A DNA stretch of 64,000 nt from Thermoplasmata archaeon (GCA_035636595.1 DASPYU010000015.1:168-64167), one strand, 5' to 3'. Positions 34,835-55,965 are shown, counted from the first letter of the stretch. Program-made: numbers and translations. The notes: generated by a model from the letters alone, not told the origin.

Positions 34835-34996
34835 AAGCCGACACCTCGAAATCGTCGACGCGTTTTCTATCCTTGAGCGCGGTACTAAGACTTTCCGGAC
34901 TCAGTTTAGAGAATGATAAGTGCTCAAGGTGGATAATCAGCGCAAAACGATTAAGTGAGCCCGCGGCCCGTGCGATGGAACATCGACGGCGGGGCC

Positions 34997-35710
34997 ATGG
35001 GCTTTCGGAATTCAATCGAGGGACTCGACAAGGTGATTCGGTCCGAGATCAACCCGCCCAAGGTCATCCTGGTCACCGGACCGCCCGGTTCGATGAAGAC
35101 GTCGTTCTGCTACTCGCTCATGTCGCGGTATCTCAAGGACACGGGCGAGTTCGGGCTGTATACGACCCTCGAAGAGACGGTCCAGTCGCACCTGCGCAAC
35201 ATGGAATCGCTCGGGGTCGAGCTCTCGATGAACATGCAGATCAGCGACTTCACGGACCTTCGGGAGATCGACGCGGTCGTGGGGCCGGAGGACCAGACGG
35301 ATTACCTCGCGTTCATCGAACGCATGATCGGCCATTACCGCAAAGTTCATGGCCACAAGTTCAAGCTCTTCGCCCTCGACTCGCTCGGCGCGCTCTATTC
35401 GCTCATGGAGCACACGACGAACATGCGGAAGCGGATGTTCTACTTCTTCAAGATGCTCCGGGACAACGAGCTCACGTCCCTCGTCGTGATGGAGCGGGCC
35501 GCGGACGGCGAGAGCCAGCTCCTCGGCAACGAGGGGTTCCTGGTAGACGGGATTGTGTTGCTCGGGCTCGACCGGTCCCACGGCAAGCTCGTGCGGTATC
35601 TGCAAGTCGAAAAAATGCGGTCCACGGACCACTCGATGGAGAAACATGCCGTCGAGGTGCGCAAGGGCGGGCTCACCGTCCTCGGTCCGATCTTCGAGAC
35701 CGGGGGCTGA
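34997..35710 (+). CDS. Single-domain KaiC/RAD55-like RecA-fold ATPase
   Basis: IEGLD, Walker A GPPGSMKT, YTTLEE, LDSLGAL, LVDGIVLL, RYLQVEKMRSTDH. Confidence 0.9.
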   Translation: MGFRNSIEGLDKVIRSEINPPKVILVTGPPGSMKTSFCYSLMSRYLKDTGEFGLYTTLEETVQSHLRNMESLGVELSMNMQISDFTDLREIDAVVGPEDQTDYLAFIERMIGHYRKVHGHKFKLFALDSLGALYSLMEHTTNMRKRMFYFFKMLRDNELTSLVVMERAADGESQLLGNEGFLVDGIVLLGLDRSHGKLVRYLQVEKMRSTDHSMEKHAVEVRKGGLTVLGPIFETGG

Positions 35711-35787
35711 TGACGACGATTCCCATTCACCCGCCGATGCCTGGGAGGCTCGGCGCGCATCGTGCACTCTTCCGGAGGGTGCTGTAA

Positions 35788-36942
35788 ATGGCCGAAGCAA
35801 CCATCAAAGACGCACTCGACGCGCTGAAAGGAATCGAAGAAAGCCTGAAATCCCGCGACTCCGAGTTCAAGGAGCGCGAGGCCGCCCTCCAGGATGGGGC
35901 CGCGAAGATCGAGGAAGACCGCCGCGTCCTCGAAGGGGAGCGGACGTCCCTCGCCGACGAACGCGACTCGATCGTCGGCCGCGAGAAGGGCCTTCGCGCC
36001 CGCGAGAAGGAGCTCGAGGTGAAGGAGCGGTCGATCGATCAGCGCGAACAGGAATTCGAGTCGGCGCGCCAGGGTGTCCTCGCGAAGGAGAACCAACTCG
36101 TCTCCCGAGAGCAGGAGCTCGCGAAGCGCCTCGAGACGCTCATGCGACGCGAAGAGGACACCGCCCGTCGCGATGCGGAAACGACGGCGCATTCGCGTGA
36201 CATCGCCGCGCGGAAGAACGAGATCGCCGCGCGACAGGAGCAGATCATCAAGCTCCTCGAGGAGCAGAAGGCGGCGCTCGACGGCCAGATCGGGCGGAAC
36301 CGCGAGCTGATCGAACGCGAGAAGAAGCTCGCGACGGAAGAGGAGAGCATCGCCTCGGCGCGCGCCAAGGTCGCCGAAGAGGCGAAGCGGCTGATCGAGA
36401 AGGAGAAGCAACTCCTGGTGCACGAACAGAACGTCAGCCGAGCTGCGGCCGCTGCGCCTGCGATGGCCACGCCCGCCGCGGGACCCCGACCCATCCCGTC
36501 CCCGGCCGCTTCACAGCCCATGCCCGGACCTGGGCCGCGCCCTCAACCCGTGCCCGCGACGCCGAGCCCCCCGCCCGCCGCAAAGCCCGCGACGCCCGTC
36601 GTCACAGCGGCCCCTCCCGCGGCGAAGCCCGTCACGAAGCCCCTGGCGGCGGAAGCCGAGGGCGAGTCGGAGATCCCCTGTCCGGCCTGTGGGACGATGA
36701 TCTCCTCCGACGCGATCATGTGCTACGCCTGCGGCCATCGCCTCCAAGAAGAATCCGCCGTCGAGGAGACCGTGGAAACGGAAGGCGAGTCGGAGGTCCC
36801 GTGTCCCGCTTGTGGCACGATGATCTCCTCCGACGCGATCATGTGCTACGCCTGCGGCCACCGCATGGCCGCGGACGACGACAAGGGCGCCAAGAGGGCG
36901 CCGGTGAGCGTCAAGAAGGTCCTCAAGAAGAAGGTCATCTGA
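35788..36942 (+). CDS. Long coiled-coil, Pro-rich linker and two zinc ribbons, with a basic C-terminal tail
   Basis: Heptad-rich E/K/R region; two CPACGTMISSDAIMCYACGH units; GGAGGG RBS. Confidence 0.85.
   Translation: MAEATIKDALDALKGIEESLKSRDSEFKEREAALQDGAAKIEEDRRVLEGERTSLADERDSIVGREKGLRAREKELEVKERSIDQREQEFESARQGVLAKENQLVSREQELAKRLETLMRREEDTARRDAETTAHSRDIAARKNEIAARQEQIIKLLEEQKAALDGQIGRNRELIEREKKLATEEESIASARAKVAEEAKRLIEKEKQLLVHEQNVSRAAAAAPAMATPAAGPRPIPSPAASQPMPGPGPRPQPVPATPSPPPAAKPATPVVTAAPPAAKPVTKPLAAEAEGESEIPCPACGTMISSDAIMCYACGHRLQEESAVEETVETEGESEVPCPACGTMISSDAIMCYACGHRMAADDDKGAKRAPVSVKKVLKKKVI
36661..36864 (+). repeat. Intragenic direct repeat (about 80 nt, period 123 nt) encoding the duplicated zinc ribbon
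   Basis: ggcgagtcggag...acgatgatctcctccgacgcgatcatgtgctacgcctgcggcca starts at both 36661 and 36784. Confidence 0.9.
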
Positions 36943-36955
36943 GTGCGAAGCCGAG

Positions 36956-37000
36956 CCGGCCGCGAGGCCCCTCTGCGGTCGGCGACCTCTCATTTTTCGT
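36956..37000 (+). terminator. Hairpin plus T-rich tract
   Basis: GCCGGCCGC...GCGGTCGGC followed by CTCTCATTTTTC. Confidence 0.5.
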
Positions 37001-37107
37001 CGATTTTCCCGCCAAAAGTGCCACTTTCATACAGAAAGTTGTATAAAATAAGTCTCTCCATAGAATTTGCCTGTTCTTCGCGGTGAGAACAGGTGCGTAT
37101 CGCGATA

Positions 37108-37149
37108 GATAATCGCTCGGTAACCTATTTATAAAGCGGGCCAGGATGG
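37108..37149 (+). promoter_or_regulatory. Promoter with shared motif GATAATC-N8-ACCTA-(TATA, N13)-CCAGGATGG
   Basis: Same layout at 43339-43380 (+) and 55924-55965 (-). Confidence 0.65.
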
Positions 37150-37218
37150 CCGGGAACAATGCCCACCGGCCGTGCACTCCGGATGCGTTCCGAAGGCTCG
37201 ACCTCAGGAGGTCTTGCG

Positions 37219-40029
37219 TTGACCAGCGGCGAACGGAATGCCAAAGCCCTCAGCCTATTGATCGTCTGGACCCTCGCCCTCGGCGGGTTGTTCGCGGCCG
37301 TTGTCGCGATGACCCCGTCCGCGCGCGCAGGGACCTGCGACCAGGTCGGCGGGGTCATCACGGGAGACTGGACGATCACGACGACCCAGGTGTGTACCGG
37401 GATCCGGTACACGGTCGACGGGTCGATCAACGTCAACGCGGGAGGCAGCCTCACGCTGGTCAACGGCGGCCTCAGCTTCTCCAAAGACACGTCCCACGAG
37501 GGCTACGCCCTGAACGTGAATGCGGGCGGCGAACTCGTCCTCGACAATTCGATTGTGACGACGCAGACGGATGCGATCCATCCGTTCATCAAGCTCGCCC
37601 TGACCGTGTCGGGCGCGAACAGCCGGTTGTCGATGAAGAACGGAGCCGTCTTGCAATTCCCGGGATGGTTCAACGCGACCGGAGCGAACCTCAACGTCAC
37701 GAGCTCGACGATCACGGGCTTCACCGCCGGGGATCTCTCGGGCCTCGGCCTGTACACCGATGACAACGACGACGCGCCGCTGATGTCGTGGGCCTCGTCG
37801 ACCGTCGGCCTGTTCGCATCGCGCATCGAGCGGATCTACGAGAACCAGACCGCGAGCGGCGGAAACGCGACCGGGCCGATCAGCGGCAACGTCGCCCTGA
37901 CCGCCTCGAGCAACTTGTATGCGTACGACACGTACGTCGGCGTCGATTTCTCGAACGTCGTCGGCCTGCACAACATGCTGACGGTGGACGGGACGTCCAA
38001 CGCGTACCTGTACAACGTCACGGTCGACCGTACACAGGATCCCATCCTCAAATCCAACTGGCAATCCGCGTTCGTCCCCACCGCCGCCACGGGGAGCATC
38101 TACCTCTTCCGCTGGCTGTGGGCGACCGCGGTCGACTCGACGTCGTTCCCCGTGAGCGGGGCGACGATCTGGTCGGTCCAGAGCCCCGGAAGCGGGACCG
38201 CATCGTTCCCGGACAACGGCCCCTCGACGACCCCGAGCGCGCGGACCCTCTGGTATCTCGGCCGCGCCGCGAGCGGGGCCAACGCTTGGAACCGCACCGG
38301 CGCGACGGGCCTCGCGGTGATCCCTCTCTACACGGACACGATCACGCAAGCGAGCCTGCCGAACGCCGAATCCTTCGGGAACTACCAGGAGACCGTGGCG
38401 TATGCCGCCTCAACCGTGACGGGAGGGGCGTATTTCGATCCCTATCCGGCCATCAACGCACCGGACAACAACAAGGCGGTCACCTACGGACTGCCAATCC
38501 AGGTGCGATCGGGTCCGGACCTCACGCTGCGGCAGACGGACTACAGCGGCACGATGAACGTCCTCCAGAACCAGGCCTTCACGGTCAACGCCCTGATCTA
38601 TAACCAGGGACAGACGACCGCGAACAACGTCGATGTCGCTGCGTACCTGAACGGCAACCGTGCGAACGAAGTGGGCCGGGTCAACGGCCTCACGATCGTC
38701 GCGTTCGTGAACCAGTCCGTGAGCATCACGGGCCTCGCGACCCTCGGGACGCAGACCCTGGAACTCATCGTCGACCCGGACAACACGATCAACGAGGGCG
38801 GCGTCGCGCAGGAGAGCAACAACTTCGTCAACATCACCCTGAACGTGCAGCCCCCGCCGTCGGGATTCGTCGCGATCGTGTCGCCGACGTCGAACCAGAA
38901 GGTCGAACCCGGGAGCACGCTCAGCGTGACGGGCTATGTCCGTGACGTGAGCTCGAACGGCATCTCCGGCCTCGGCCTGACGGTCGAACTGCGATCCGGA
39001 GCCGCGGTCCTCGCCTCGAACACCACGATGTCCGGAACGGACGGCTTCTTCATCGCGGGCATCAACGTGCCGGCTGGCCTCCAGGACGGCTCGTACAACG
39101 TCGTCGTGACGCCGTCGACCGGCCTCGTGTCGCCCGACACGCGGACGATCGCGGTCCAGAAGAGCGTGTCCTTCTTCCTGACGAACGTGCCGTTCCTCAA
39201 CATCCCATACTGGCTCTTCCTCATCATCGTCGCGGCCGCGGTCGCGGTCGTGATCGGTGTGACGGCCTACTGGAAGGTCTACGGCCTCGGGAAGATGGTC
39301 GAGTGCGGCGAGTGCGGCGCCTTCATCCCCGAAGACGCGACGACGTGCCCGAAGTGCGGCGTCGAGTTCGAGAAGGACATGGCGAAGTGCTCGAACTGCC
39401 AGGCCTGGATCCCCGTCGACGTGAAGCAATGCCCCGAATGTGGCGTCGAGTTCGCCACGGGCCAGCTCGAGATGGCCGACTACCAGGAGAAGATGAAGCT
39501 CCAGTACGACGAGGTCGTCGCGAAGTTCAAGCAGGAAGCGGGCCGCCAATTGGGCCGCAGCCTGTCGGATGCCGAGTTCCAGGAGTGGTGGCGCAAGCAG
39601 CCCACGTTCCTGACCTTCGAGGACTGGCTCCGCGAGGAAGAGGAGATGCGCAAGATGGGCTCGAAGCCGTGCCCGACGTGCGGCACCCTCAACTCCGTGA
39701 CGGCGACCGTGTGCCACAAGTGCGGCTCCCTGATGCGCGAGACGCGCCCGCCGGGAGGCGGTGGCGCGGTCGTCGCGGGCGCCCCGACGCGGAGGGGCAT
39801 CGGCCGAGGATCGGACGACAGCTCGGGCGGCGGCTCGCAGGCGGCTCCCTACGGAACCCCTGGCACAGCCACCCCGGGCACGGAGTCGATCCCGCGCCGC
39901 GTGATCCAGAAGCCGGGCGGCCCCGGACCCGTCGTCCAGAAGCGCGTCATCAAGAAGCCGATGGAAGGCCAGGAAGGCGAGGCCTCGGACGACTCGTCGA
40001 GTGGCAACCAGTCGGAAGACGATCTGTGA
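37219..40029 (+). CDS. Surface protein: signal peptide, beta-helix-like region, CARDB/Ig-like domains, TM, cytoplasmic zinc ribbons (short paralog)
   Basis: CARDB-like VDPDNTINEG..ESNN; TM YWLFLIIVAAAV; three CxxC..CxxC units. GGAGGT RBS before TTG 37219; alternative ATG at 37159. Confidence 0.85.
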   Translation: MTSGERNAKALSLLIVWTLALGGLFAAVVAMTPSARAGTCDQVGGVITGDWTITTTQVCTGIRYTVDGSINVNAGGSLTLVNGGLSFSKDTSHEGYALNVNAGGELVLDNSIVTTQTDAIHPFIKLALTVSGANSRLSMKNGAVLQFPGWFNATGANLNVTSSTITGFTAGDLSGLGLYTDDNDDAPLMSWASSTVGLFASRIERIYENQTASGGNATGPISGNVALTASSNLYAYDTYVGVDFSNVVGLHNMLTVDGTSNAYLYNVTVDRTQDPILKSNWQSAFVPTAATGSIYLFRWLWATAVDSTSFPVSGATIWSVQSPGSGTASFPDNGPSTTPSARTLWYLGRAASGANAWNRTGATGLAVIPLYTDTITQASLPNAESFGNYQETVAYAASTVTGGAYFDPYPAINAPDNNKAVTYGLPIQVRSGPDLTLRQTDYSGTMNVLQNQAFTVNALIYNQGQTTANNVDVAAYLNGNRANEVGRVNGLTIVAFVNQSVSITGLATLGTQTLELIVDPDNTINEGGVAQESNNFVNITLNVQPPPSGFVAIVSPTSNQKVEPGSTLSVTGYVRDVSSNGISGLGLTVELRSGAAVLASNTTMSGTDGFFIAGINVPAGLQDGSYNVVVTPSTGLVSPDTRTIAVQKSVSFFLTNVPFLNIPYWLFLIIVAAAVAVVIGVTAYWKVYGLGKMVECGECGAFIPEDATTCPKCGVEFEKDMAKCSNCQAWIPVDVKQCPECGVEFATGQLEMADYQEKMKLQYDEVVAKFKQEAGRQLGRSLSDAEFQEWWRKQPTFLTFEDWLREEEEMRKMGSKPCPTCGTLNSVTATVCHKCGSLMRETRPPGGGGAVVAGAPTRRGIGRGSDDSSGGGSQAAPYGTPGTATPGTESIPRRVIQKPGGPGPVVQKRVIKKPMEGQEGEASDDSSSGNQSEDDL
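39268..39738 (+). repeat. Near-identical copy of 47270-47740 (cytoplasmic zinc-ribbon coding region)
   Basis: Ungapped match at offset 8002, with long exactly identical stretches. Confidence 0.9.
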
Positions 40030-40283
40030 GATCGCCTTCCCCTACCCCCTTTTCCACCAACCTTGTTCTTCTCCAAGGGCCGATCACTTTCAGTACGCTG
40101 GCTTGGCCTCAATCCATAGGACTATGAATGAACGGTCCTCGCGAGCGCGAGGACACTCTGTACGCTTCTCGGCCCGCGGAAAACCGTCAGCTCGTCCAAG
40201 CCTAATTTCGGATGAGGCGCCGCTCCCTCTCCCGACCTGCGCGATCGCCACTCGCGAATCGGGTCGGCGCACGACCCCGCCTA

Positions 40284-40982
40284 TCACCCCAATCTGATGC
40301 CCACCCTCGCCTCGGGATCGGCGGCCCTCGCGGCCCTAATCGTTGCATCCCGGGTATCGATTACGGAGAAGAACGTGAAGATTGCCGTGATCGCGGCGGC
40401 CCAATCCAGCAGGTATATGCGCCGAGGAATCAGCCAGACGAGGACTCCGATCGCACCCGTGAGGCCCGTGAAGACTGCCGTGCACAGAACGAACACTTTC
40501 GCAGCTGCGAGGGGGCGGTGCCATGTGGTCCCGCCCGACTTGTGGGAGACCTGCAGAAGCAGAGACACGGTGTGCACCGCGGCTGTCAATGCGAGGAGTC
40601 CAAGCGCCATTGCGAGCAACGAGATCCCTGGGATCGCTGGCTGGCTGAAGGCGGTAAGGAAGTAGGCGACGCTCGTAAGAATTGCCGGTCCTGCTGCCGC
40701 GATTAGTCCCACACGCAACGACCGAAGGACGGACGTCACCGATGAACCGAGTTCGCCCCGCACGAGGAGGGATTGGAAGGATGAGGACGAGGTTGTCCGT
40801 CCAATCAGTGCGTCGAGCCGCGGCATGAGCAAGAACGACACAACAAGACCGAGAAAGGCCGCGACCGTTGACAGTCCAATCGCCAAGGGTCCGGACCCGA
40901 AGAGGAGTACGGTGACGGCAACTGTGACGAAGAACGTAAATGCCGCGCAGATTGTCGAGAGTTGAAACCTGTAGCTAGCCAT
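40284..40982 (-). CDS. Multi-TM hypothetical membrane protein (lower GC)
   Basis: About 6 hydrophobic segments; ATG 40982 inferred. Confidence 0.55.
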   Translation of the reverse strand: MASYRFQLSTICAAFTFFVTVAVTVLLFGSGPLAIGLSTVAAFLGLVVSFLLMPRLDALIGRTTSSSSFQSLLVRGELGSSVTSVLRSLRVGLIAAAGPAILTSVAYFLTAFSQPAIPGISLLAMALGLLALTAAVHTVSLLLQVSHKSGGTTWHRPLAAAKVFVLCTAVFTGLTGAIGVLVWLIPRRIYLLDWAAAITAIFTFFSVIDTRDATIRAARAADPEARVGIRLG

Positions 40983-41396
40983 GCGATCTCTGGGAGGATG
41001 CGCTTGGGGGCTCCGAAAGATGCCGATCCTATTGAGGCTGTCCACGCTCGGCATCAGGCCGGCTCGGTGCCATCGCCATCCCTTGACGGATGCAACCATC
41101 TCGGGCCCGATGGCCTCTTCTCTGACAGCGATCTATTGAGACACCTCACGGGGGGCGTCAATCGTGCGAGCTTCATAGCATCCTCTCTGGACTCGTCTCC
41201 CGCCTGGACTCGCGCAGCGCCTCAAAACAGCAACGACTCAACCAGGGGGCCCGGCGCGCTACGTCGCGCTGACAGACGTCGCTCAATGAGGCAGTGCCCG
41301 GCGATCTACGAACGTGGTCATCGCTCCAATCCTGGGCAGCCGCTATGCTCCGCGCGTCCGCGACGACTTTGGAGGATCCCTTCTGACAAGGCTAGG

Positions 41397-43031
41397 CTAG
41401 TAGACGACCATCCCGATGAACGGGATCACCTGGGCGTACCACGTCGTCCGGCAGACCACGATCGGATCGGTCAGGTGCAGGATCGGGTTGTACGTGGCCC
41501 CGAGGCCGCTGCAACCGTACGGGTTCGGTCCGACCCCCGCGAGCTGTGCGTACGTGTAGTTCGACGGCCCCGCCATCCCGGACACGAGGATGCTCATGAA
41601 GAACGTCGCCGAGCCCCACGTGTTGGGAGAGCCGGTCGAGAATGGCGTCTTCGCGTAGGCGAGCATCACATACGGCGTGCCGCCGGTGTCCTGGTTGAAC
41701 ACGTTGATATCGAAAACCCCGGTGGGACTCGTCGCCGCACACCCCGCGGGCAGGCCGCTGCGCGCGTACTGGAAGTCATTGATGTTTCCTGGAGTCCCCG
41801 GATACGCGGCGACGCCGCCCGCGTTCGCGTTGATTGCCGTACTGCACGGCGCCACGATGAACGCCACCGCCCCGGCCGAGGACTGCGTGTTCTGGAAGAA
41901 CGCCTCACTCCAGCCATCGATGAAGATTGTCGTGTTCCCGTGGTTCACCATCTTGAAGTGGAAGAGCGCTCCGCCGTTCCCATTCAGCATGGCGCGCGTG
42001 ACCCGATAGGGCTGGTAGGTGCTTGCGCTGTTGTACGGAGCGCTGAGGTTCGACACCCAGACTTCCCCCGTTCGGATTTGCACGTACCCGATGTATTGCC
42101 ACAACTGGCTCGGGATCGTGCCGCCGCCTCCGCCGCCACCCCCGGTCTGCTGGACGACGTTCAGGACGAACCGGGTCGTCGTCTGGTGGCCCTTCAGGTC
42201 CGTCGCGTTAAGCAGGATGATCGATCCCGCCCAGCTCAGAGGCGGGTAGGGGGGGCTCGTGCAGGCGTTCCCGCCGAGCGTGAAGATGTTGTCGCCCGCG
42301 ACTTTGTCCGGCGGGACGCCGTCATCGCGCATCTTGAGCGGGCTCGCGCACGACGTGCCGGAACCGTACCAAGCGGTGATCGTGGCGTACACCGAGTTCG
42401 GGTTCAGGTCCCCATCAGGGTCCGAGACTTTCGCGAACATGTAGAATCCGAGCTGGGTCTGCACCGGGTCGATCGCGTCCGTCGCGTAGACGCCGTCCGT
42501 CCACTTGTCGGTGAACACCGGCGGCCGCACGCCCTGGGGCGCGCTCATGGCGCCGGTCCAGATGATCGTGCTCTTCAGCACGTCGACGATGGTGATCGTG
42601 ATGGCATCCGAGGACCGGAGGTTGAAGTTCTTGTACTCCCAGCGCTCCCCGATGTCCCAGACGCTGTCGATGCCGTCGAGAATCCCGCTCGGGGTCGCGA
42701 GCAGGCCGTTGAAGCGATGGAGGGTGACGACGTCCGTCTGCGGCGGGTTCGTGCCCCGCTGCGACGTCACGTAGATGAGGCTGGGCACCGGCTGGAGCGC
42801 TTCTCCGCCCTGGTGGAAGAGCGTGATGTTCACGCCGATCTCGAGGCCGAGCGCGTTGTAGATCGGCGTCATCTCGGAGCGGACGTCCGTCCGGGTCTGC
42901 GCGACCGGCGTGGGGATGCTCGAGACCCAGATGATGATCGTCGAGAACAGGACGACGGTCATGGCCAGGATGAGGATCGTGCCGATGACCTCGGACACAC
43001 CCGACCTGTCTTCGCGCAGGATGACTTTCAT
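41397..43031 (-). CDS. Large type IV pilin/adhesin with class III signal peptide
   Basis: DRSG|VSEVIGTILILAMTVVLF prepilin motif. Internal MRDDGVPPDKVAGDNIFT resembles a choice-of-anchor X motif. Confidence 0.85.
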   Translation of the reverse strand: MKVILREDRSGVSEVIGTILILAMTVVLFSTIIIWVSSIPTPVAQTRTDVRSEMTPIYNALGLEIGVNITLFHQGGEALQPVPSLIYVTSQRGTNPPQTDVVTLHRFNGLLATPSGILDGIDSVWDIGERWEYKNFNLRSSDAITITIVDVLKSTIIWTGAMSAPQGVRPPVFTDKWTDGVYATDAIDPVQTQLGFYMFAKVSDPDGDLNPNSVYATITAWYGSGTSCASPLKMRDDGVPPDKVAGDNIFTLGGNACTSPPYPPLSWAGSIILLNATDLKGHQTTTRFVLNVVQQTGGGGGGGGTIPSQLWQYIGYVQIRTGEVWVSNLSAPYNSASTYQPYRVTRAMLNGNGGALFHFKMVNHGNTTIFIDGWSEAFFQNTQSSAGAVAFIVAPCSTAINANAGGVAAYPGTPGNINDFQYARSGLPAGCAATSPTGVFDINVFNQDTGGTPYVMLAYAKTPFSTGSPNTWGSATFFMSILVSGMAGPSNYTYAQLAGVGPNPYGCSGLGATYNPILHLTDPIVVCRTTWYAQVIPFIGMVVY

Positions 43032-43338
43032 GAGAGTGGCCTCCCGGTGGGCTTTGGGAGAATGACCTCGCAGCCGAGCCGACGATATATAAATTGTTCG
43101 TGGTAGTTACCATTCACTGATAGCGTGAGAATCACGGGCCGCATGGGGACGGGGCTCGAACTCGCCTGGAACCGACGGGCAAACGGACCGGGGATCGAAC
43201 GACGACGTCCGAGGGACGACTGGTTTCGGTCCATGTTTGGGACGGAGGCCGGATTTCCATTCTATCCGGTTAATAAAAACCCCGCCCAGAAGGAAACCCG
43301 CGTGTTTCCGGGGATGAGAACAATTGCGTATCGCGCCG

Positions 43339-43380
43339 GATAATCATCCGCCAACCTATTTATCGAGCGCCCCAGGATGG
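43339..43380 (+). promoter_or_regulatory. Promoter with the shared GATAATC...CCAGGATGG motif
   Basis: GATAATC-atccgcca-ACCTA-tttatcgagcgcc-CCAGGATGG. Confidence 0.65.
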
Positions 43381-43450
43381 GCGCATACTCATGCCCACCG
43401 GTCGGTGCCCTCCGGACGCGCTCGAGGACTCGACGCTCGGAGGTCATCGG

Positions 43451-48242: not shown

Positions 48243-48294
48243 TCCGCGCGAAATCCGCGCGAAGACCTTATCCACCCCGCGCGATGCCTCGCGG

Positions 48295-49428
48295 ATGCGC
48301 CCGGAGGACCGGCGGGTCGTGGCCTTGCTCGGATTCCTCCATGGGACGGTCCACGCGAACATCCTCTCGATCCCGGTCTTTCTGCTCGCCTGGCGCTCGG
48401 AGTTCGCCGCGGACGACGTGACCCTCGGACTTCTTGCGGCGGTGACGTACGGCGCTTATGGCCTGGGCGCCGTTCCGTTCGGGTATCTGGCGGATCGGCG
48501 CTCCCCGAGCCGCCTCTTGCTTCTGTGTGGCATGGGCATCGCGGCATCGGTTGCGGCGGTTGCGGCAAGTCCCTCGATCCCGCTTCTCGCGGCGTCGCTC
48601 GTCGCCCTCGGCCTGTTTTCCGGGATCTACCATCCGACCGGGCTGTCCGTCATCTCGAGGACCGTGCGCGAGCAGGGACGCGGGATGGGATGGCACGGGA
48701 TGGGTGGCAGCCTCGGGATCGCGTCCGGTCCGGCGTACGTGACTGCCGCGGTCGCCTTGGGATGGTCCTGGCGTCTCGCCGCCGGGCTCCTCGTCGGTCC
48801 ACCGCTCCTGGCCGCGGCCCTCCTGATGGCCGTCGGTCTTCCGCCCGCGCCCCCGGAGCCTGCGGAGGATCGGCCTACCGCCGTCCGTGCCTTGTTCACG
48901 CGGCCCTTCGTCCGGATCCTCCTCGTCTATATGTTCGCCGGGTTCGCGTACCAAGGCGGCCTGACGTTCCTCCCGCGCTTCGTCGGCTCCGCCCCGTTCG
49001 CGGCGGCCCTCGGCCTCGGGGCCATCGGACAAGTGCTGTCGGGCACCCTCGCGGACCGCCGCCATCCGGATCGACTGTTGTTCGTCCTGAGCCTCGTTGC
49101 GGCGGCGATCCTGCTCTTTCTCGCGTTGGGCCCTCCGTATGCCGTGTTCGTGGTTGCCGGGCTCGGCTTCGGGTTCGTCCTGTTCTCGCTGGAGCCGTTA
49201 CAGAACACGCTCGTCACGGGCGAGGCCCCGCGGGCGCGGCGCGGGCTGGCCTTCGGGTTCACGTTCCTCAGCGTCTTCGGGATCGGATCGATCGGAGCCG
49301 CGCTCGCCGGGTGGCTCATCGCACAGAATGCCGCCGCGGCCCTGTTCGCGATCCTCGCCGCGTGCCTCGCGGCGTCGGGCGGCTTCGCCCTCGGAGTGCA
49401 ATCGAGGCGAGCCGCGTCGGGTCGCTGA
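48295..49428 (+). CDS. MFS transporter
   Basis: GYLADRR and GTLADRR motif A, GIYHP; about 12 TM. Confidence 0.88.
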   Translation: MRPEDRRVVALLGFLHGTVHANILSIPVFLLAWRSEFAADDVTLGLLAAVTYGAYGLGAVPFGYLADRRSPSRLLLLCGMGIAASVAAVAASPSIPLLAASLVALGLFSGIYHPTGLSVISRTVREQGRGMGWHGMGGSLGIASGPAYVTAAVALGWSWRLAAGLLVGPPLLAAALLMAVGLPPAPPEPAEDRPTAVRALFTRPFVRILLVYMFAGFAYQGGLTFLPRFVGSAPFAAALGLGAIGQVLSGTLADRRHPDRLLFVLSLVAAAILLFLALGPPYAVFVVAGLGFGFVLFSLEPLQNTLVTGEAPRARRGLAFGFTFLSVFGIGSIGAALAGWLIAQNAAAALFAILAACLAASGGFALGVQSRRAASGR

Positions 49429-51243
49429 TCAGCTCGCGGGCACCGGGACGCCTTGCGCCTGGAGTGTGTCGCGGACGACCTTGATCATCCCGTCCGGGTC
49501 CTTGTAGTACGAGGAGACGATCTTCGCGACGTCGCGGTAGTTCTTGATCTCCATCCGCTTCATGTACTCGAAGATGTCCAGGCGGCGCTTGACCTCCTGT
49601 TCCATCCTCCGCTGGTTCCAGTTCCGCGCGAGGGAGATCTTCTCGTAGACGTACGAGTGACCGGAATAGTTGAACGTGTCATCCGCCGGGTTCCAGGTGT
49701 ACGCGGAGTTCGTGATCAGCTCGTTGCTCTCCGGATCCGTGCCGACGACCTCGACGATCGCCTTCACGCGCCGGGTCATGTCCGTCCCGACCTTGACCTG
49801 CGCCTGGAGGAGCACGATGTCGAGCGCCGCGACCAGGGCGCGCGGCAGGTTGATCGGGTCGTTCTCGAGCCGGTGGACCATCGCCTGGACATCGTCCGCG
49901 TGGAACGTCGTGTACGCGGATTTGCCCGTCGCCATGGCCTGGAACACGACGAACGCCTCGGGTCCACGGACCTCACCGATCATCATGTACTGCGGGCGTT
50001 GCCGCAGCGCCGCTGTGAGGAGGTCGAACATGTCGATCTCGCCGGCCGGCTTGCCGGTGATGTTCGACTTGCCGCCGAATCCGGCGCGCGTCAGGAGCGG
50101 CACCCAGTTCTCGTGCGGCAGGTTCAGCTCGCGGGTGTCTTCGATGGAGACGATCTTCATCTGGGGCGGGATGAACAGCAGGATCGCGTTCAGCGTCGTC
50201 GTCTTGCCGGACGCTGTGCCGCCGCAGATCAACATCGACTGCCCATTCTCGATCGCGAGCCAGAGGTAGCCCATCATCTCCGGGGACATCGTCTTGAAGC
50301 GGACGAGGTCGAGCGGGGTGAAGGGGTTCTCTCGGAACCGCCGGATCGTGAACGAGGACCCGCGCTTCGTGACGTGCATCCCGAGCGTCGCCTGGAGACG
50401 CGAGCCGTCCGGGATCGTCGCGTCGAGCATGGGCTTCGCGACGGAGATGTGCTTGCCGGACCGCTGCGCGAGCCAGATGACGAACGAGTCGAGCTCCTCC
50501 GCGTTGTCGAACTTCAGGTTCGAGGGGATGGACCCGTACTTGCGGTGGTAGATGTACAGCGGCACGTTGACGCCGTCACAGGAGACGTCTTCGACCTGGA
50601 CGTCCGTCATCACGACGTCGATCGCTCCGTACCGGATGAAGTCCCGGAACACATAGTACATGATCCGTTCCTTCGACACGGGGTGGAGGTCCACGCCGAG
50701 TTCTCGCAGGAGGCCGTCGACGATCCGCCGGAGGTAGTTCTGCTTTTGCTCTTTGTCCGCGTCGTCGAGGAGCTCGAGGTTCTCCACGAGGATCTCCTTC
50801 AGGACGTCGAGCAGTTCCGACTCCTCCTCGAGGAGCTTCGGCTCGATCGCCTCGTAGAAGTACTCGTTCGCCATCGTGTCGTACAGGATCCGCGTATAGG
50901 AGTAGTTCTTCAGGATCGGCTGGATCTCGATCTCGTTCATGCCGCGCCGGACGATCTTCGGGATCGTGGTGATCTTGCCGAGGGTGGTCTCCTCGATGCT
51001 GCTGACCTTGGGCGCCTTGACCTTGACGCCCTTCTCTCCGAGGAGGCGGCTGAAGTAGCGGTGCTTGATTGAGTCGAGCGCCTTGAACGTCGTCGCCTTG
51101 CGCTTCTCGTCGAGGTCGTTGAGCATGCGCTTGGCCTCGTCGCGCTCCATGTCGAGGGACCGGACCTTCGACCGAGTCGCGGCCTTCTTCCGATCGATCG
51201 CGTCGAGTTCCTGCGCGTAATTTCCTTCCTGGGATTGCGCCAT
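49429..51243 (-). CDS. Type IV pilus/secretion ATPase (FlaI/PilB/VirB11-like) with N-terminal coiled coil
   Basis: EDVSCDG, SSFTIRRF, GGTASGKTT, SIEDTRE, LRQRP, GEVRG, AMATG. Confidence 0.93.
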   Translation of the reverse strand: MAQSQEGNYAQELDAIDRKKAATRSKVRSLDMERDEAKRMLNDLDEKRKATTFKALDSIKHRYFSRLLGEKGVKVKAPKVSSIEETTLGKITTIPKIVRRGMNEIEIQPILKNYSYTRILYDTMANEYFYEAIEPKLLEEESELLDVLKEILVENLELLDDADKEQKQNYLRRIVDGLLRELGVDLHPVSKERIMYYVFRDFIRYGAIDVVMTDVQVEDVSCDGVNVPLYIYHRKYGSIPSNLKFDNAEELDSFVIWLAQRSGKHISVAKPMLDATIPDGSRLQATLGMHVTKRGSSFTIRRFRENPFTPLDLVRFKTMSPEMMGYLWLAIENGQSMLICGGTASGKTTTLNAILLFIPPQMKIVSIEDTRELNLPHENWVPLLTRAGFGGKSNITGKPAGEIDMFDLLTAALRQRPQYMMIGEVRGPEAFVVFQAMATGKSAYTTFHADDVQAMVHRLENDPINLPRALVAALDIVLLQAQVKVGTDMTRRVKAIVEVVGTDPESNELITNSAYTWNPADDTFNYSGHSYVYEKISLARNWNQRRMEQEVKRRLDIFEYMKRMEIKNYRDVAKIVSSYYKDPDGMIKVVRDTLQAQGVPVPAS

Positions 51244-51252
51244 CGGGTCACC

Positions 51253-52185
51253 TCAGATGATCAGGAACGCGAAGAACGCGATCAGCAGCATGACGAAGCT
51301 GTGCCGCAGGCCGTTCGGAATGCGCCCCGTGTCCAGTACGCCGGCGAGGATGCCGTCGCCCAGGCCGTGGACGATCGTCGCGATGAAGAACGCGAGGCGG
51401 ATGCTCTTGACGACGCCCGGCAGGTCCGTCGCCAGAGGACTGGCCCCGCCCAGGGCGCCGCCGTTCACGCCGCCCGAAAGGGCGCCGCTCGCCTCGAGCA
51501 TCTTCGGCAGGAATGTGACGTTCAGGATCCAGATCGTCACCAGGAACACCATGAACGAGATGTAAATCACCGCGATGTACGTCGACATCGCGATCCGCCG
51601 CTCATCCTCCGTGAGTTGGTTCTCCTTCGTGTCGTGGCTGACCATCGTCAGGACGTCAGCGACGTCGCCACCCGCGTCCGAGGACTTCACGATGATCGCG
51701 ACGATCCGCCCGACCATCGGCGTCTTCACGCGCTCCGCGAACAGCTGCAACGCCTCCGTCGCGGGGACGCCCCAGGTGATCTGGGCCGCCATCTTCTTGA
51801 TCTCCGGCGTGAGCTTGCCGTAGCGCCCGGAGGACGACACGACGATCGCATCCGCGAGGGTCATGCCGAACCGGCCGGCTTCGGCGACGTCGCGCAGGAA
51901 GTCGGGGAGTCGGCGCTCGATGAGCTTGATCTCCCGCGCTTTCTTCGCCATGAAGAAACCGTAGGGTCCGATGAAGCCCAGGATTGCGATGACCATCCAG
52001 TAGAGGCCCCGCTCCGCGGCTCCCTGGTCCCCGCGGAATCCAAGGCTGACGGAGTTGATCACGTTCAGGAAAGCAACGAAGCTAAAGACCACGAGTAGGA
52101 CGCAGCTCACGGCGACGACCGCCTTCTGGCGATCCGCCTTCTGGTAGAGCCGCACCCGGGCCTTCTCGAGTTCGGGGTTCGCCAT
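51253..52185 (-). CDS. Type IV pilus membrane platform protein (TadC/FlaJ-like)
   Basis: LPDFLRDVAEAGRFGMTL...YGKLTPE...GGDVADVL T2SSF pattern. Confidence 0.9.
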   Translation of the reverse strand: MANPELEKARVRLYQKADRQKAVVAVSCVLLVVFSFVAFLNVINSVSLGFRGDQGAAERGLYWMVIAILGFIGPYGFFMAKKAREIKLIERRLPDFLRDVAEAGRFGMTLADAIVVSSSGRYGKLTPEIKKMAAQITWGVPATEALQLFAERVKTPMVGRIVAIIVKSSDAGGDVADVLTMVSHDTKENQLTEDERRIAMSTYIAVIYISFMVFLVTIWILNVTFLPKMLEASGALSGGVNGGALGGASPLATDLPGVVKSIRLAFFIATIVHGLGDGILAGVLDTGRIPNGLRHSFVMLLIAFFAFLII

Positions 52186-52186
52186 G

Positions 52187-53236
52187 TCAGCCCTCCTGCT
52201 CCATGTTCCAGATCACGAAGATGAACCCGAACTGGCTCATCGGGATCATCAGGCCGACGACGACGTACAGCAAGGTGACGACGAAGCTCCCGGACGTCCC
52301 CTTGCTGATCAAGGCCATGATTGCCATGATCACGACGAGGAAGAGGGGGAACGCCACGACGACCGTGACGAAGGACTCCGCGAGCATCCCGAGCGTCTCC
52401 ATCTTCTTCCGCATCTCGAGGCGGTCTTCCTTCTCGAACTGCTCCGCCTTCACGAGGAAGTACGGCTTCAGTTGGCCACCGCTCGTGGACGTCGTGACGA
52501 CGCCCTGAAGGAAGTCCTGGAATTTCGAGGACGGGGACCGCTGCGCAGCCTTGCGGATCGCGGTGAGGATGTCCAAACCGAGGAGTTCCGTGTCGCGGGT
52601 GATCCACTCCGCCTCGCGCGCGACCTCGCCGTACACGGTCTGCTTCGATAGCTCCTTGAAGATCACGTCGACGGGGACGTTCGCGGATGCCATGGCGGAG
52701 ATGAACGACATCGCGCCGGAGATCCGCTTGTCGATCTTGTGGCCGCGCTTCTTCGCCATGGACGCCGGCCTGCCATGGTAGCCGACGGGGAGGCCGAAGA
52801 AATACATGTAGGAGAAGAAGATCGGCAACGCCGCGACGAGGCCGAGGATGATCAGCAGCGTGACGATGTCGATCCGCAAGATGAAGAGGAAGATCGACGC
52901 GATGAACGCGGCGACGACGGCCCCCACCGCGGCGAAGGTCGTGTTCATCCAGGCGACCGCAAGGTACTCCTCGGGCCGCAGCTTGATGTGTGCCTTCAGG
53001 AGGTTGTCCTCGAGCTCCGGGTTGTCCCGTTCGCGGCTCTGGACGAACTTCCCGAACATGCGCCAGGCGACCTGCTCCTTCGGCGACAGGCTCACGTTGA
53101 CGGGCTTCGCGCCCTTCGGGAGCTTGACGAGGTGAGCGCCCTGTTCGGCCTCTTCCTCGCGGCGGGTGCGCTTCGTCTTGGTGAGCGTGCCGCGGGTCTG
53201 CAGCTTCTCGAACGCGGAGCTACCCAACCGTCTCAC
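52187..53236 (-). CDS. Type IV pilus membrane platform protein (TadC/FlaJ-like)
   Basis: YGEVARE...LGLDILTAI...SPSSKFQDFLQG...SGG pattern. Confidence 0.9.
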   Translation of the reverse strand: MRRLGSSAFEKLQTRGTLTKTKRTRREEEAEQGAHLVKLPKGAKPVNVSLSPKEQVAWRMFGKFVQSRERDNPELEDNLLKAHIKLRPEEYLAVAWMNTTFAAVGAVVAAFIASIFLFILRIDIVTLLIILGLVAALPIFFSYMYFFGLPVGYHGRPASMAKKRGHKIDKRISGAMSFISAMASANVPVDVIFKELSKQTVYGEVAREAEWITRDTELLGLDILTAIRKAAQRSPSSKFQDFLQGVVTTSTSGGQLKPYFLVKAEQFEKEDRLEMRKKMETLGMLAESFVTVVVAFPLFLVVIMAIMALISKGTSGSFVVTLLYVVVGLMIPMSQFGFIFVIWNMEQEG

Positions 53237-54872
53237 CCCCGGCCTCGACGGGCTTCAGGACCCCGTGGTCGGCCCATCCCATCTCCTCGCGGATCCGCTT
53301 CGCGGTCTCGTCCGGGTACTGATAATACTGGACGACGATCTTCGCGATCTCGCGGAAGTCCGTCATCCCTTTTTGAACCATGTAGTTGACCACGTCGATC
53401 CGCCGCGCGAATTCGGCTTCCATCTCCTCGTGGGTCATGTTCTTCATTTCCATGATCTCGTCGAACAGGAACGAGTGCCCCTTGTAAACGAAGGTGTCCG
53501 TGGCGGCGTCCCACTCGTACACGGTGTTCGTGATCAGCTCGTTCGTCTCCGGCTCGAACCCGACGAGCTCCACGACCTGCTTGATGCGCCGGACGATCGA
53601 GTCGCCGATGCGGGCGTGCGTCTGGATGATCACGAAGTTGAGGGCCGTGAGCAGGATTCTCGGCGTGTTGATCGGCGGGTTCTCGAGGCGGTTGACCATC
53701 GACTTGACCGAGTCCGCGTGCATCGTCGACATCGTCGGGTGGCCCGTCGCCATCGCCTGGAACATCGTGTACGTCTCCGCGCCTCGGACTTCCCCTACGA
53801 TGATGTAGTTCGGCCGCTGCCGCAGTGCCGCGCGCACGAGGTCGTACATGTCGATCTCGCCGCCGGCCTTCCCGTCGGGCCCGCGCTCGCCGACGCCGGA
53901 CCGCGTTGTGCCGGGGATCCAGTTCTCATGGGGCAGGTTGATCTCCCGCGTGTCTTCGATCGAGACGATCTTCGCGCCCGGCCGGATGAAGAGGCCCGCG
54001 CTGTTCAGCGTCGCGGTCTTCCCGCTCGCGGTGCCGCCGCAGACCATCATCGACTTGCCGTTCTCGACGGCGACCCAGAGGTACGCGACCATCTCGGCGC
54101 TTGCCGTGCCGAACTTCACGAGTTCCGTCGGGGTGAAAGGCTTCTCCTTGTACCGCCGGATCGTGAACGAGGAGCCGCGGGTCGTGACCTCTCGGCTGTA
54201 CGTCGCTTGGACGCGGTGGCCTTCGGTGGACGTGCCGTCGAGGATCGGGTTCGCGACGGAGAGTTGCTTCCCGCACCGCTGCCCGAGCATGACGGCGAAC
54301 GAGTTCAGGGCGTCGTCATCGTCGAAGATGACGTTCGTCTTGATTGACTCGTACTTCTGGTGGAACACGAACAGGGGGATCGCTTCGCCGTCGCAGGAGA
54401 CGTCCTCGATCCGGAGGTCCGCCATGAGCACGTCGACGGGACCGTATCCGACGAAGTCCCGGATGATGTAGTAGACGATCTTGTCCTTCGAGGCGGGTTC
54501 GAGCCGCAGGCCGCGGGACTTGATGAACGAGTCGACGGCTTCCTGCAGGTACTCCTTCTTGTCTTTCTCCGCCATCTTGTCCCATTCGTACTCGAGCGTG
54601 CGGTTCAGGGAGTCCTTGATCATGTCGAGGAACTCCTTCTCGCGTTCGTCGAGCTGGGGTTCCCAGACCTCGTAGACGTATTCGGAGCGCTCGTGGTCGT
54701 AGACGATGCGCGCGTAGGTGAAAGGCTCGCGGATCGGCACGACCTCGATCTCTTCAAGGCTATCGCGAGTGAGGTCGGGGATCCGCGTGAGGTAGGAACC
54801 GCGCGTCCCGGACCACTCCGCCTTCTGCTGGATTGCGCCCCGCGGCATCATCACCTTGCGTTGCTTCGGCAT
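53220..54872 (-). CDS. Type IV pilus/secretion ATPase (second paralog)
   Basis: GGTASGKTA, SIEDTRE, LRQRP, GEVRG, AMATGH, TMHA. Confidence 0.93.
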   Translation of the reverse strand: MPKQRKVMMPRGAIQQKAEWSGTRGSYLTRIPDLTRDSLEEIEVVPIREPFTYARIVYDHERSEYVYEVWEPQLDEREKEFLDMIKDSLNRTLEYEWDKMAEKDKKEYLQEAVDSFIKSRGLRLEPASKDKIVYYIIRDFVGYGPVDVLMADLRIEDVSCDGEAIPLFVFHQKYESIKTNVIFDDDDALNSFAVMLGQRCGKQLSVANPILDGTSTEGHRVQATYSREVTTRGSSFTIRRYKEKPFTPTELVKFGTASAEMVAYLWVAVENGKSMMVCGGTASGKTATLNSAGLFIRPGAKIVSIEDTREINLPHENWIPGTTRSGVGERGPDGKAGGEIDMYDLVRAALRQRPNYIIVGEVRGAETYTMFQAMATGHPTMSTMHADSVKSMVNRLENPPINTPRILLTALNFVIIQTHARIGDSIVRRIKQVVELVGFEPETNELITNTVYEWDAATDTFVYKGHSFLFDEIMEMKNMTHEEMEAEFARRIDVVNYMVQKGMTDFREIAKIVVQYYQYPDETAKRIREEMGWADHGVLKPVEAGGETVG

Positions 54873-54882
54873 GTGTGGTCCC

Positions 54883-55881
54883 TCAGAACTGGACGTTCTC
54901 CGCCGCCTCGCCGACGCCCACTTGGACCTGCGCGTGCTGCAGGCGGAAGACGCTCAGGGGCAGGATCCCGACGTTGTTGTGAATCTCGAGCCGCATCGTG
55001 TACATCCCGCTCGTCGGGTTGAGGCTCGCGCTGATCTTATAGACGGTCAACAGCCCGATCTTCGCGGTGAAGGAGACGTCCAGCGGTGTCGAGGTGAACG
55101 TGCCTCCGAGTTTCAGGGCGCCGGAGAGGGTCTGGTTCAGGAACGAGTACCATGCGAGGCCATAGCGGGACGTGTGGTTGATCCAGACGACCGCGTTGCT
55201 CGCGAAACCCCGGTAATCCTGCCGGTCGAACGCGAATACCTGCGTATTCACGATTTCCGTGCTCGTCCCCGCGATCGCGCCGGTTCCGTACAGGCTGACG
55301 AGCCCGAAGGAGACATCCAGGGAATTGTTTGTCTTCCCGACGGCGAAGGTGGGTTGTGCCCGGACGACTTGGCCGTCGCCCTGGTACCGGATGACCGCGC
55401 CGTTCTCGTACGCGATCGTCTGGGCCGTGTAGTAGCGGTTCGCCACTTGGAGTTCGATGGAGCCGTTCGATTGTTCCGCGACATGCGTGCGGACGTTGTT
55501 GATGAGATAGTCGAAGGTGACGGTGAAGGAGCCTGCATCCGGGAACGATCGCAAGGTGCCGATCGTCGACGCGGAGAAGATGGGAACTCCGTCGACGCCG
55601 AGGCCGACCGCGGACGAGGCCGTCACGGGGATGTAGAACGTGCCCGCGTTCTGCGCCGATTGCGCGGCGAGCTCCTGGAGGTCGATCGCGCCCTTGAGGC
55701 CTCCGAACTGGCCGAGGGCGCTGTTCATGTGGGCCGCCTCGGAGTCCTTCATCCAGACGGGGACGTATTGGTTGACAATCAAACTCAGGAATGTGAGGAA
55801 GACCAGGAGGGCCATGATCGTGCCGACCGTCGAGGCGACACCCCTCTTATCCGACCGAAGCTCGTGGATCACGACACGCAT
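54883..55881 (-). CDS. Pilin-like protein with class III signal peptide
   Basis: DKRG|VASTVGTIMALLVFLTFLSLI; YENGAV motif; first gene of the T4P operon. Confidence 0.82.
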   Translation of the reverse strand: MRVVIHELRSDKRGVASTVGTIMALLVFLTFLSLIVNQYVPVWMKDSEAAHMNSALGQFGGLKGAIDLQELAAQSAQNAGTFYIPVTASSAVGLGVDGVPIFSASTIGTLRSFPDAGSFTVTFDYLINNVRTHVAEQSNGSIELQVANRYYTAQTIAYENGAVIRYQGDGQVVRAQPTFAVGKTNNSLDVSFGLVSLYGTGAIAGTSTEIVNTQVFAFDRQDYRGFASNAVVWINHTSRYGLAWYSFLNQTLSGALKLGGTFTSTPLDVSFTAKIGLLTVYKISASLNPTSGMYTMRLEIHNNVGILPLSVFRLQHAQVQVGVGEAAENVQF

Positions 55882-55923
55882 GGATTCACCCGAGGAGAAT
55901 CCTCCGTAGACATTCTACGCGGC

Positions 55924-55965
55924 CCATCCTGGATGACGCTATTTATAGGTGTCGCGCTGAAAATC
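55924..55965 (-). promoter_or_regulatory. T4P operon promoter with the shared motif
   Basis: Minus strand reads GATTTTC-agcgcgac-ACCTA-taaatagcgtcat-CCAGGATGG. Confidence 0.65.

Follow-up and report, generated by a model that had tools for sequence, protein, structure and literature searches.

In a 64,000-nt stretch of the genome of a Thermoplasmata archaeon (GCA_035636595.1, contig DASPYU010000015.1, positions 168-64167; hereafter the window, with coordinates counted from its first base), a type IV pilus-like operon, two large surface proteins and a KaiC-like ATPase are preceded by promoters that a preliminary description had joined through one position-fixed motif. We find that the shared motif is beyond chance and beyond duplication, and that it consists of two separate modules with different distributions, not of one signal. 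The GATWWTC part is the promoter-proximal half of a dyad, approximately TATCA-N4-TGATAAY, located 18–21 nt upstream of the TATA box and recurring throughout the genome. The proximal module comprises CCNGGATGG between the TATA box and the start (about -16 to -8) and RTGCCCACCGG at the predicted transcription start, and is mostly restricted to pilus-operon and surface-protein promoters of one genus. We therefore read these sequences, with some confidence, as modular archaeal promoters under purifying selection, in which two cis-regulatory modules would stand beside the TFB recognition element (BRE) and the TATA box.

The composite motif GATWWTC-N8-ACCTA-N13-CCAGGATGG occurs with no mismatch at 37108-37149 (+), 43339-43380 (+) and 55924-55965 (-), and the other sequences named in the preliminary description were likewise all present at the positions given there. 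No fourth match was found in the window even with three mismatches allowed, and none of 100 dinucleotide shuffles gave any match. The whole genome assembly (G000; 26 contigs, 2,196,754 bases, 65% GC, 94.3% complete, with the window at C15:168-64167) contains the same three composite sites only; GATWWTC-N8-ACCTA alone has one additional genome match, at C19:21799. Two of the sites head proteins with CARDB domains and double zinc ribbons, while the third, as had been claimed, lies ahead of a non-paralogous gene, the first of an operon encoding a DUF7289 pilin-like protein, two T2SSE ATPases and two T2SSF membrane proteins. Conservation of all three promoters extends to the orthologous loci of relatives, with variable spacers: pairwise identity is ~90–100% in the blocks and 20–40% in the spacers, compared with 53–63% at third codon positions of the first 60 codons.

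These patterns bear on a simple explanation by inheritance, in which a promoter cassette with a strong core promoter was copied between genes that have no common regulator. The two surface genes are indeed paralogous, and their promoters are homologous over ~100 nt. Moreover, the string CTCAAGG..GATWWTCAGCGC is shared by the KaiC and pilin promoters only in this genome and its close relatives. However, pilin and surface promoters have wholly different spacers, which also vary from ortholog to ortholog around fixed blocks, and the distal box recurs at the same offset before dozens of unrelated genes, as well as in families of the order whose flanking sequences cannot be aligned. We regard copying without a common regulator as very improbable. 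The same string qualifies the reported likeness of the KaiC and pilus promoters: CTCAAGGTGGATAATCAGCGC is present at 34923-34943 in the KaiC promoter and the resemblance is real in this genome, but elsewhere it shrinks to CTCA, AGAT and TCAGCGC.

The distal module emerged from the genome without any prior motif. In an unbiased k-mer scan of 1204 TATA-like non-coding sites, GATAA stood at -19, -20 and -18 in 13, 9 and 8 sites, respectively, against 1.6 expected per position. The box GA[TG]AA[CT] occurs 2549 times in the genome, and a TATA-like pentamer follows at +18 to +21 from its first base in 47 distinct sites; 12 control windows of four offsets each averaged 7.25 sites and did not exceed 13. 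(An earlier TATA filter, requiring at least 7/8 A/T plus a strict pattern, was too stringent, yielding 5 matches, and was replaced.) When 28 sites were aligned, the bases T, A, T and C of the left half, at -10 to -7, were present in 16, 13, 19 and 19 of them. Ras-gene promoters from five other families of the order carry plain TATCA-N4-TGATAAY palindromes, such as TATCAcctcTGATAACC, at the same distance from TATA; a regular expression recovers them in 16 of 30 loci, and further one-base variants are visible by eye. A half-site variant, GAGAAC(C), with the left arm AATTCA, precedes several Ras genes of this genome.

The genes behind the box form a recognizable set. Sixteen of the 47 sites precede members of four families with 62 genes in total (Ras 7/20, KaiC 5/25, winged-helix 3/6, DUF835 1/11), an enrichment with one-sided Fisher p = 1.2e-12 for 1658 genes and 1.6e-14 for 2200 genes; a relaxed scan with a position weight matrix (PWM) suggests a box upstream of about 11–12 of the 20 Ras genes. 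By Pfam, the genes behind further boxes encode a V4R protein, coiled-coil or zinc-ribbon proteins of 4431 and 1495 aa, an exosortase-like protein, an MscS channel and an ABC ATPase, among others, as well as both surface proteins. The genome is rich in signalling paralogs for its 2.2 Mb, with 25 KaiC-like proteins, 20 Ras-family proteins, 11–12 DUF835 domains and 6 small winged-helix proteins, alongside 4 TFB paralogs. By contrast with this set, the box was found at the right offset in none of the 35 tRNA promoters (the word occurs elsewhere within 110 nt in 4), and only 47 box-plus-TATA sites exist in the genome; the elements are accordingly no housekeeping feature. Of the two outcomes named beforehand as refuting the motif, equal frequency at housekeeping promoters and lack of conservation, neither was observed. 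Across the order the box is conserved before the KaiC gene, the surface proteins and the winged-helix regulator discussed below. The GATAATC dyad stands before ~40 promoters, mostly those of genes for Ras-like GTPases and for KaiC-like, winged-helix and coiled-coil proteins. It is thus no dedicated element of the pilus system, and the earlier proposal of a single site for one dedicated factor was not supported. As a separate observation around TATA-like words, GTTAACC directly upstream and AAGGTTAAC just downstream each occur in 9–10 sites against ~0.7 expected, an enrichment that resembles a repeated palindromic word around TTTAA.

The position of the box also speaks to the possibility that an alternative general factor, a TFB or TBP paralog, reads this promoter class, with the shared words being extended core-promoter elements. 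In favour of such a factor, the genome encodes the 4 TFB paralogs mentioned above, TFIIB homologs are among the predicted regulators in the available portion of an archaeal type IV pilus census (PMC4858521), and the proximal block lies within the region contacted by TFB and polymerase during opening. However, the distal box (~-48 to -42) ends 11 nt upstream of TATA, past the 6–7-nt BRE that TFB reads according to the available part of PMC5512572, and it forms a dyad with variable spacer, which is typical of dimeric regulators. The BRE of the box promoters has the same AA (in 18 and 16 of 28 sites) as the tRNA promoters, which are of the GAAAnnTTTAT type. The four TFB genes map to contigs C16, C19 and C23, outside the window. 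Taken together, we consider a general factor of this kind an improbable reader of the box.

The surface-protein promoters carry both modules. Surface protein 1 (37219-40029, +) has a signal or transmembrane segment, a CARDB and an MG2-like domain and C-terminal double zinc ribbons by Pfam. Its frame is open from 37159, and a TTG start after GGAGG is likely because all orthologs show ATG or TTG there behind GGGAGG. Upstream lies the distal dyad TATCG-CGAT-AGATAATC (37098-37114, +; GATAATC at 37108-37114), which is among the top matches of the genome (PWM score 20.5) and aligns among orthologs as GTATCG.gAtaGATAATCG, with the box in 20/20 genus orthologs. It is followed by the TATA box TATTTATAAA (37126-37135), conserved in the alignment and preceded by a BRE-like GGTAACC, by the proximal element CCAGGATGG between TATA and predicted start (37141-37149, ~-16 to -8) and by ATGCCCACCGG at the predicted transcription start (37159-37169), a word found in 19/20 genus surface promoters, whose ATG lies 31 nt past the TTTAT pentamer. 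Surface protein 2 (43451-48037, +), a longer paralog with two CARDB domains and double zinc ribbons by Pfam, is 67% identical to surface protein 1 over the N-terminal part and repeats this arrangement, with TATCG-CGCC-GGATAATC at 43329-43345 (PWM score 20.7), TATA at 43357-43364, CCAGGATGG at 43372-43380 and ATGCCCACCGG at 43391-43401. Across the genus, surface promoters have GAKAAY plus TATA in 20/20, GGATG in 18/20 and RTGYCYRYBG in 19/20 cases, and their consensus is gTATCG.gAtaGATAATCGc.cggtAaccTaTTTATaaA..gg.cc.GGATGg....acATGCCCacCGGtcG; in other families GGATG at the right distance was found in 0/8 surface promoters. Just upstream of the surface promoters we also noticed an inverted repeat, GTTCTC-N5-7-GAGAAC (37062-37094; orthologs L021-L042), with conserved arms and a varying loop. 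It could terminate transcription of the zinc-ribbon gene that precedes it or serve as a further dyad site; its GAGAAC arm is also a half-site variant of the box.

The KaiC promoter has the distal module alone. Ahead of the KaiC-like ATPase gene (34997-35710, +; Pfam KaiC, E = 5.5e-34) stand GAGAATGATAAG (34909-34920), CTCAAGGTG, GATAATC (34932-34938), AGCGCAAAACG and the TATA-like ATTAAGTG (34950-34957), the whole spanning 34909-34957 (+). In the genus, GAGAATGATAAGT and GATAAtcAgCgc..TTAAGT are conserved, within the consensus caGAGAATGATAAGT.cTCa....aGATAAtcAgCgc.aaAc..TTAAGT. KaiC orthologs were found in 37 of the 41 genomes searched at E ≤ 1e-40 (two matches in genome G001), with 68–95% identity. 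The box lies at a fixed distance from TATA in 18/18 genus loci and in 9/11 loci of other families, and the CCAGGATGG part is present in none of them (0/18 and 0/11). One operator for all members, as originally envisaged, is thereby contradicted: GGATG follows TATA in 15/17 pilin and 18/20 surface promoters but in 0/18 KaiC promoters. As a further observation, the divergent intergenic region between the zinc-ribbon gene and the KaiC gene (34772-34996) is conserved almost throughout in the genus (GTACAAAGACTTTCCGG.CTC...), and the same region holds an apparent minus-strand promoter, GGAAAGTCTTAGTAC, for the zinc-ribbon gene.

The pilus-like operon (49429-55881, -) consists, by Pfam, of five genes, encoding the DUF7289 pilin-like protein (54883-55881), a T2SSE ATPase (53220-54872), two T2SSF membrane proteins (52187-53236 and 51253-52185) and a second T2SSE ATPase (49429-51243). 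An ortholog of the operon pilin occurs in 38/41 genomes searched, with 42–78% identity. The operon promoter carries the upstream block GAAAATC-GACTC-ATTCTCA-AGGGTA-GATTTTC (55959-55990, -; GATTTTC at 55965-55959), in which GAAAATC is a mirror copy 18 nt upstream of the box, and a core (55904-55947, -) with the TATA box TATAAATA at 55947-55940, CCAGGATGG at 55932-55924 and ATGTCTACGG at 55913-55904. In an alignment of 18 sequences, 17 of the genus and one of another family (f6), this promoter is near-invariant while protein identity falls to about 50%. The consensus is aCTcATTCTCA..GA.TTTCAgC.CGACAC.TATAAATAgCG....CCaGGaTGG....aaTG.c.AC. GGATG is present in 15/17 genus pilin promoters, the remaining two having GGTTG, and in 2/16 from other families. 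Thus, the operon has the start-site module in common with the surface genes and, with the KaiC gene, only a related, non-consensus upstream box, which makes it the weakest member with respect to that box. A paralog or a different factor may read its box. The idea of one regulon of pilus, surface and KaiC genes accordingly stands only in part, with the box in 20/20 surface and 18/18 KaiC promoters of the genus and at none of the 17 pilin promoters. More broadly, the expectation that the elements are conserved in orthologous promoters was borne out by the regular-expression counts for the surface, KaiC and pilin families.

A second pilin-like gene, with the class III signal peptide MRIVLRQDSTGVAS, lies on contig C8 (~129741-130040). 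Its upstream region (C8:130040-130110, -) has a weak TATA preceded by GATTATC-TCAATT-GATTTTT; the proximal half of this dyad is similar to GATTTTC, the pilus-operon box, which hints at a variant of the pilin-type half-site.

Linkage of the pilin, surface-protein and KaiC genes on single contigs was seen in many of 40 related genomes and is represented in each of the seven families of the order, and a KaiC gene shares a contig with a surface-protein gene in many genomes.

The proximal module behaves differently from the distal one. CCAGGATGG has 34 exact copies in the genome, 3 of them behind ACCTA-N13; with one mismatch and a nearby AT-rich box there are 8 sites, including the 3 known ones. 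A widespread role of CCAGGATGG in the genome was rejected, GGATGG at the right offset from TATA being weakly enriched (14 sites). A general -10 element of the form GATGG was also rejected, since this word does not figure among those enriched downstream. All KaiC and winged-helix promoters lack GGATG at the right distance. Because the ATGCCCACCGG-type word that follows CCAGGATGG in both surface promoters also occupies the pilin start in distant orthologs, which have GTGCCCACCGG or ATGCCCACCG where this genome has ATGTCTACGG, the motif is ~20 nt longer than first noticed. At +28 to +30 from the TATA pentamer, GATGG occurs in 13, 19 and 15 sites against a mean of 4.3, a peak that likely represents leaderless start codons at +29 to +31; the RTG of RTGCCCACCGG would therefore lie at about +1.

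This placement raises the alternative of a role at the RNA level, in which RTGCCCACCGG, perhaps with CCNGGATGG, would be the 5' end of a leaderless-type transcript, and a short upstream frame or the binding of a factor would couple or gate translation of the pilin and surface genes. Consistent with this, the RTG is located where likely leaderless start codons sit in this genome, and both the length of its frame and its distance to the main start are near-invariant. We inspected these frames at 37159-37221, 43391-43453 and 55913-55869 (-) of the window and at loci L001-L042. At the pilin loci, the RTG opens a 14-codon frame ending 13 nt past the main ATG in 16/17 cases, 32 nt separating RTG and start. 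At the surface loci, 12 of 19 have frames of 19–22 codons, of which one stops 4 nt short of the scored start and 11 stop 5 nt beyond it, and 7/19 are in frame with the main open reading frame; the distance from RTG to the main start is mostly 60–64 nt, with one locus at 51. The short frames may reflect translational coupling on a leaderless-type mRNA or be incidental. (The upstream ATG as a general N-terminus of the surface proteins was rejected, being in frame in only these 7/19.) Against an RNA-level role, four pilin orthologs have GTG instead of ATG, the encoded short peptides are unconserved beyond the first four residues, and we estimate the chance of an open 14–22-codon frame at 65% GC at about 0.6. 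ATGCCCACCGG shows as much conservation at its third codon positions as elsewhere, which suggests a constraint on the nucleic acid. CCNGGATGG lies upstream of the predicted start and would therefore not be in the RNA. Rfam 15 has no family in the promoter and leader regions, and at gathering score the whole window yields 3 tRNAs only. An RNA-level explanation thus appears unlikely.

Among possible readers of the distal dyad, a family of small winged-helix proteins (candidates of 122–152 aa, six paralogs in this genome) is our tentative best guess because of apparent autoregulation, the box being in its own promoter, together with extreme conservation. The 122-aa member at C23:113701-114066 has an ortholog in 41/41 genomes at 82–99% identity, far above KaiC or the operon pilin. 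Its own promoter across the order has the form TTGAGAATCA-N5-GATAAYC-about 10 nt-TATA, in which both half-sites are kept and the spacer is variable; the box is found at 18/20 genus loci and 6/10 loci of other families, the remainder being one-base variants by eye. Three of the six paralogs head strict box promoters, and four to five do so in a relaxed view. An AlphaFold2 model (predicted local distance difference test score 88) has four helices followed by a five-strand sheet in the C-terminal half. With Foldseek, the best Protein Data Bank (PDB) match of this model was 2p4w, the heat-shock regulator Phr of Pyrococcus furiosus (E = 9e-5, query-normalised template-modelling score 0.62, 22–23% identity), followed by 1uly and 2cwe (ArsR-type). 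Sequence searches were less informative: NCBIfam gave Lrs14, Sta1, Phr and ArsR matches, all below threshold; source databases carry only generic names for the family; the best PDB sequence match had E = 0.19; and Pfam TrmB reached 19.6 and 21.7 bits on the candidates, below its 25.6-bit cut-off.

Based on these data, we propose a plausible mechanism for the modular promoters. A dimeric transcription factor would bind the dyad, centred ~52 nt upstream of the start, with its proximal half-site 4–5 bp from the BRE. Bound just upstream of the BRE, it could help to recruit TFB and TBP and so act as an activator; we suppose activation because the box sits upstream of the BRE, and, in the available portions of PMC5512572 and PMC4706686, archaeal activators bind upstream of the BRE and repressors downstream of TATA or over the start. 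The winged-helix family may be that regulator and may control itself. The ~40 box promoters would drive Ras-like GTPases, KaiC-like ATPases, DUF835 proteins, small winged-helix proteins and giant coiled-coil or zinc-ribbon proteins. The proximal module might then add a second, locus-specific control point to the pilus and surface genes, acting either as an operator through which some factor blocks or gates RNA polymerase at the start, or as a conserved mRNA 5' end; CCNGGATGG at ~-16 to -8 lies where archaeal repressors act, as far as the available parts of PMC4706686 and PMC5512572 describe. A bolder extension, possible but rather doubtful, is that one autoregulated winged-helix family reads TATCA-N4-TGATAAY and commands ~20 Ras/Rab-like and ~25 KaiC-like proteins, DUF835 proteins and giant coiled-coil/zinc-ribbon proteins together with the surface proteins of the pilus machine. 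In that case, the half-site variants GATAAY, GAGAAC and GATTTTC would mark sub-regulons of paralogs, and the second, start-site operator would gate the pilus and surface genes only.

Several observations weigh against two modules read in this way. The box of the pilus operon is GAyTTTC, and GAKAAY does not occur at the promoter position in the pilin orthologs (two regular-expression matches look, by eye, like GAGAAT in the 5' leader); in addition, the pilin ATTCTCA is one base further from its box than TATCA is from GATAAY. The left half-site of the dyad is often weak, with ATC at -9 to -7 in just 13/47 sites of this genome, and a direct repeat, GAGAATC-N6-GATAATC, suits some promoters as well as the palindrome. 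Given the near-consensus TATA boxes (TATTTATA, TATAAATA) and the usual BRE AA, the weak core promoter often seen with activators is not evident. Only circumstantial evidence connects the winged-helix family with the box. The case for the proximal module rests on conservation in one genus, whose genomes are non-independent, and GGATGG is weakly enriched genome-wide, with 5, 5, 4 and 3 sites at +15 to +18, compared with 1.54 per offset, and with 14 from +14 to +19. Finally, the gene calls are crude, giving 1658 genes over 78% of the genome.

Elsewhere in the window, a GATAATC box at 21829-21823 (-) was confirmed, with its AT-rich box at the same distance as previously noted: it precedes ATATTTTTT by 19 nt, the genes behind it encode a 339-aa protein (20739-21758) and a Ras-family GTPase (within 19846-20865; Pfam Ras, E = 1.6e-34), and its left half-site is weak. 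A GATAACG box with TATA (11286-11292, -) precedes the gene of a winged-helix regulator paralog (HTH_20; 10789-11244, -). As had been described, the variant GGAAACC (31203-31209, +) is present upstream of the DnaA-ATPase/DUF835 gene; the layout is the same, GGAAACC-N8-ACC-TTTTTAGA, but this box is outside the consensus and not in the genome box list. The KaiC-like gene is flanked by a zinc-ribbon protein (33368-34771, -) and a coiled-coil and zinc-ribbon protein (35788-36942, +), both recognized by Pfam. Between the surface genes lies an archaeal type IV pilin of 544 aa (41397-43031, -; Pilin_N by Pfam, arch_flag_Nterm by NCBIfam), divergent from surface protein 2; a longer overlapping plus-strand open reading frame, 40962-43106, has no Pfam match. 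The promoter region of this Pilin_N gene (43040-43140, -) contains ATTCTCA, TATCA, TATA and GCCCACCGG. A transporter of the major facilitator superfamily (Pfam) is part of the same conserved gene cluster. Outside the window, a PAC2-like gene, so assigned by sequence reading (C16:418854-419615, -), has a pilin-like promoter layout, GTGTTCTCA..TCTTTAAGTA..CCGGGATGGACCGC, with TATA, CCGrGATGGrCCGC and a start codon ~35 nt past TATA (C16:418854-419700; loci L177-L200); the genus keeps GTGTTCTCA and GATGGrCCGC there.

An operator conserved across the order provides a testable regulon list of ~40 promoters in this genome and ties the Ras-like and KaiC-like signalling families to a type IV pilus-like surface apparatus. 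In our literature search, no paper combined three or more of the terms Thermoplasmata, small GTPase, KaiC and promoter motif. The candidate small protein could be expressed and tested by electrophoretic mobility shift assay or DNA affinity purification sequencing without culturing the organism. The promoters also illustrate that an apparently single motif can be two superimposed codes of different reach.

The dyad is reminiscent of upstream activator sites such as those of Ptr2, TFB-RF1, EarA and upstream TGM, in that it lies at a fixed distance close upstream of BRE and TATA, with 47 sites against 7.25 in the control and the same offset in orthologs and other families. In sequence it resembles TGM itself (the Thermococcales glycolytic motif, TATCAC-N5-GTGATA, bound by TrmBL1), a palindrome with the same outer half-site letters, TATCA and TGATA, present at many promoters; in the available portion of PMC4706686, its position relative to BRE and TATA determines the outcome, with activation from upstream and repression from downstream. 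Nevertheless, TATCA and TGATA are separated by seven bases in TGM and by four here, the TGM regulon is sugar metabolism rather than signalling and surface genes, TrmB has a sugar-binding domain that the 122-aa winged-helix candidate does not, and here a single fixed distance upstream of the BRE applies to all sites. EarA sites of the euryarchaeal fla/arl operons are similar in that they, too, directly precede the BRE of an appendage operon related to type IV pili and are read as contacting TFB, as presented in the available parts of PMC5512572 and PMC10665913; their distance of 9–11 bp from the BRE is taken to imply this contact (PMC10665913). They differ in being a repeated 6-bp TACATA (PMC10665913) instead of a GATAAY dyad, and TACATA is absent from the pilus promoter. 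Moreover, EarA (PF07381) has no match in the 94.3%-complete genome, and the box here is not specific to an appendage operon. KaiC-family ATPases beside type IV pilus-like loci have been predicted as regulators by Makarova, Koonin and Albers in 2016 (PMC4858521, available portion), and the KaiC-like CirA of Haloferax volcanii lowers archaellum gene transcription (PMC10983859, available portion). What is available of these two reports concerns proteins and gene neighbourhoods, with no shared promoter element described; the KaiC gene studied here, unlike such regulators, carries the box and is not the factor reading it. Proteins of the Phr/ArsR type are likewise small dimeric winged-helix proteins that read palindromes near promoters, and they are the best structural matches of the candidate. 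Its sequence similarity to them is below family cut-offs, however, and its C-terminal half is a five-strand sheet. Phr is a repressor that binds over the start site, whereas the box described here lies upstream of the BRE.

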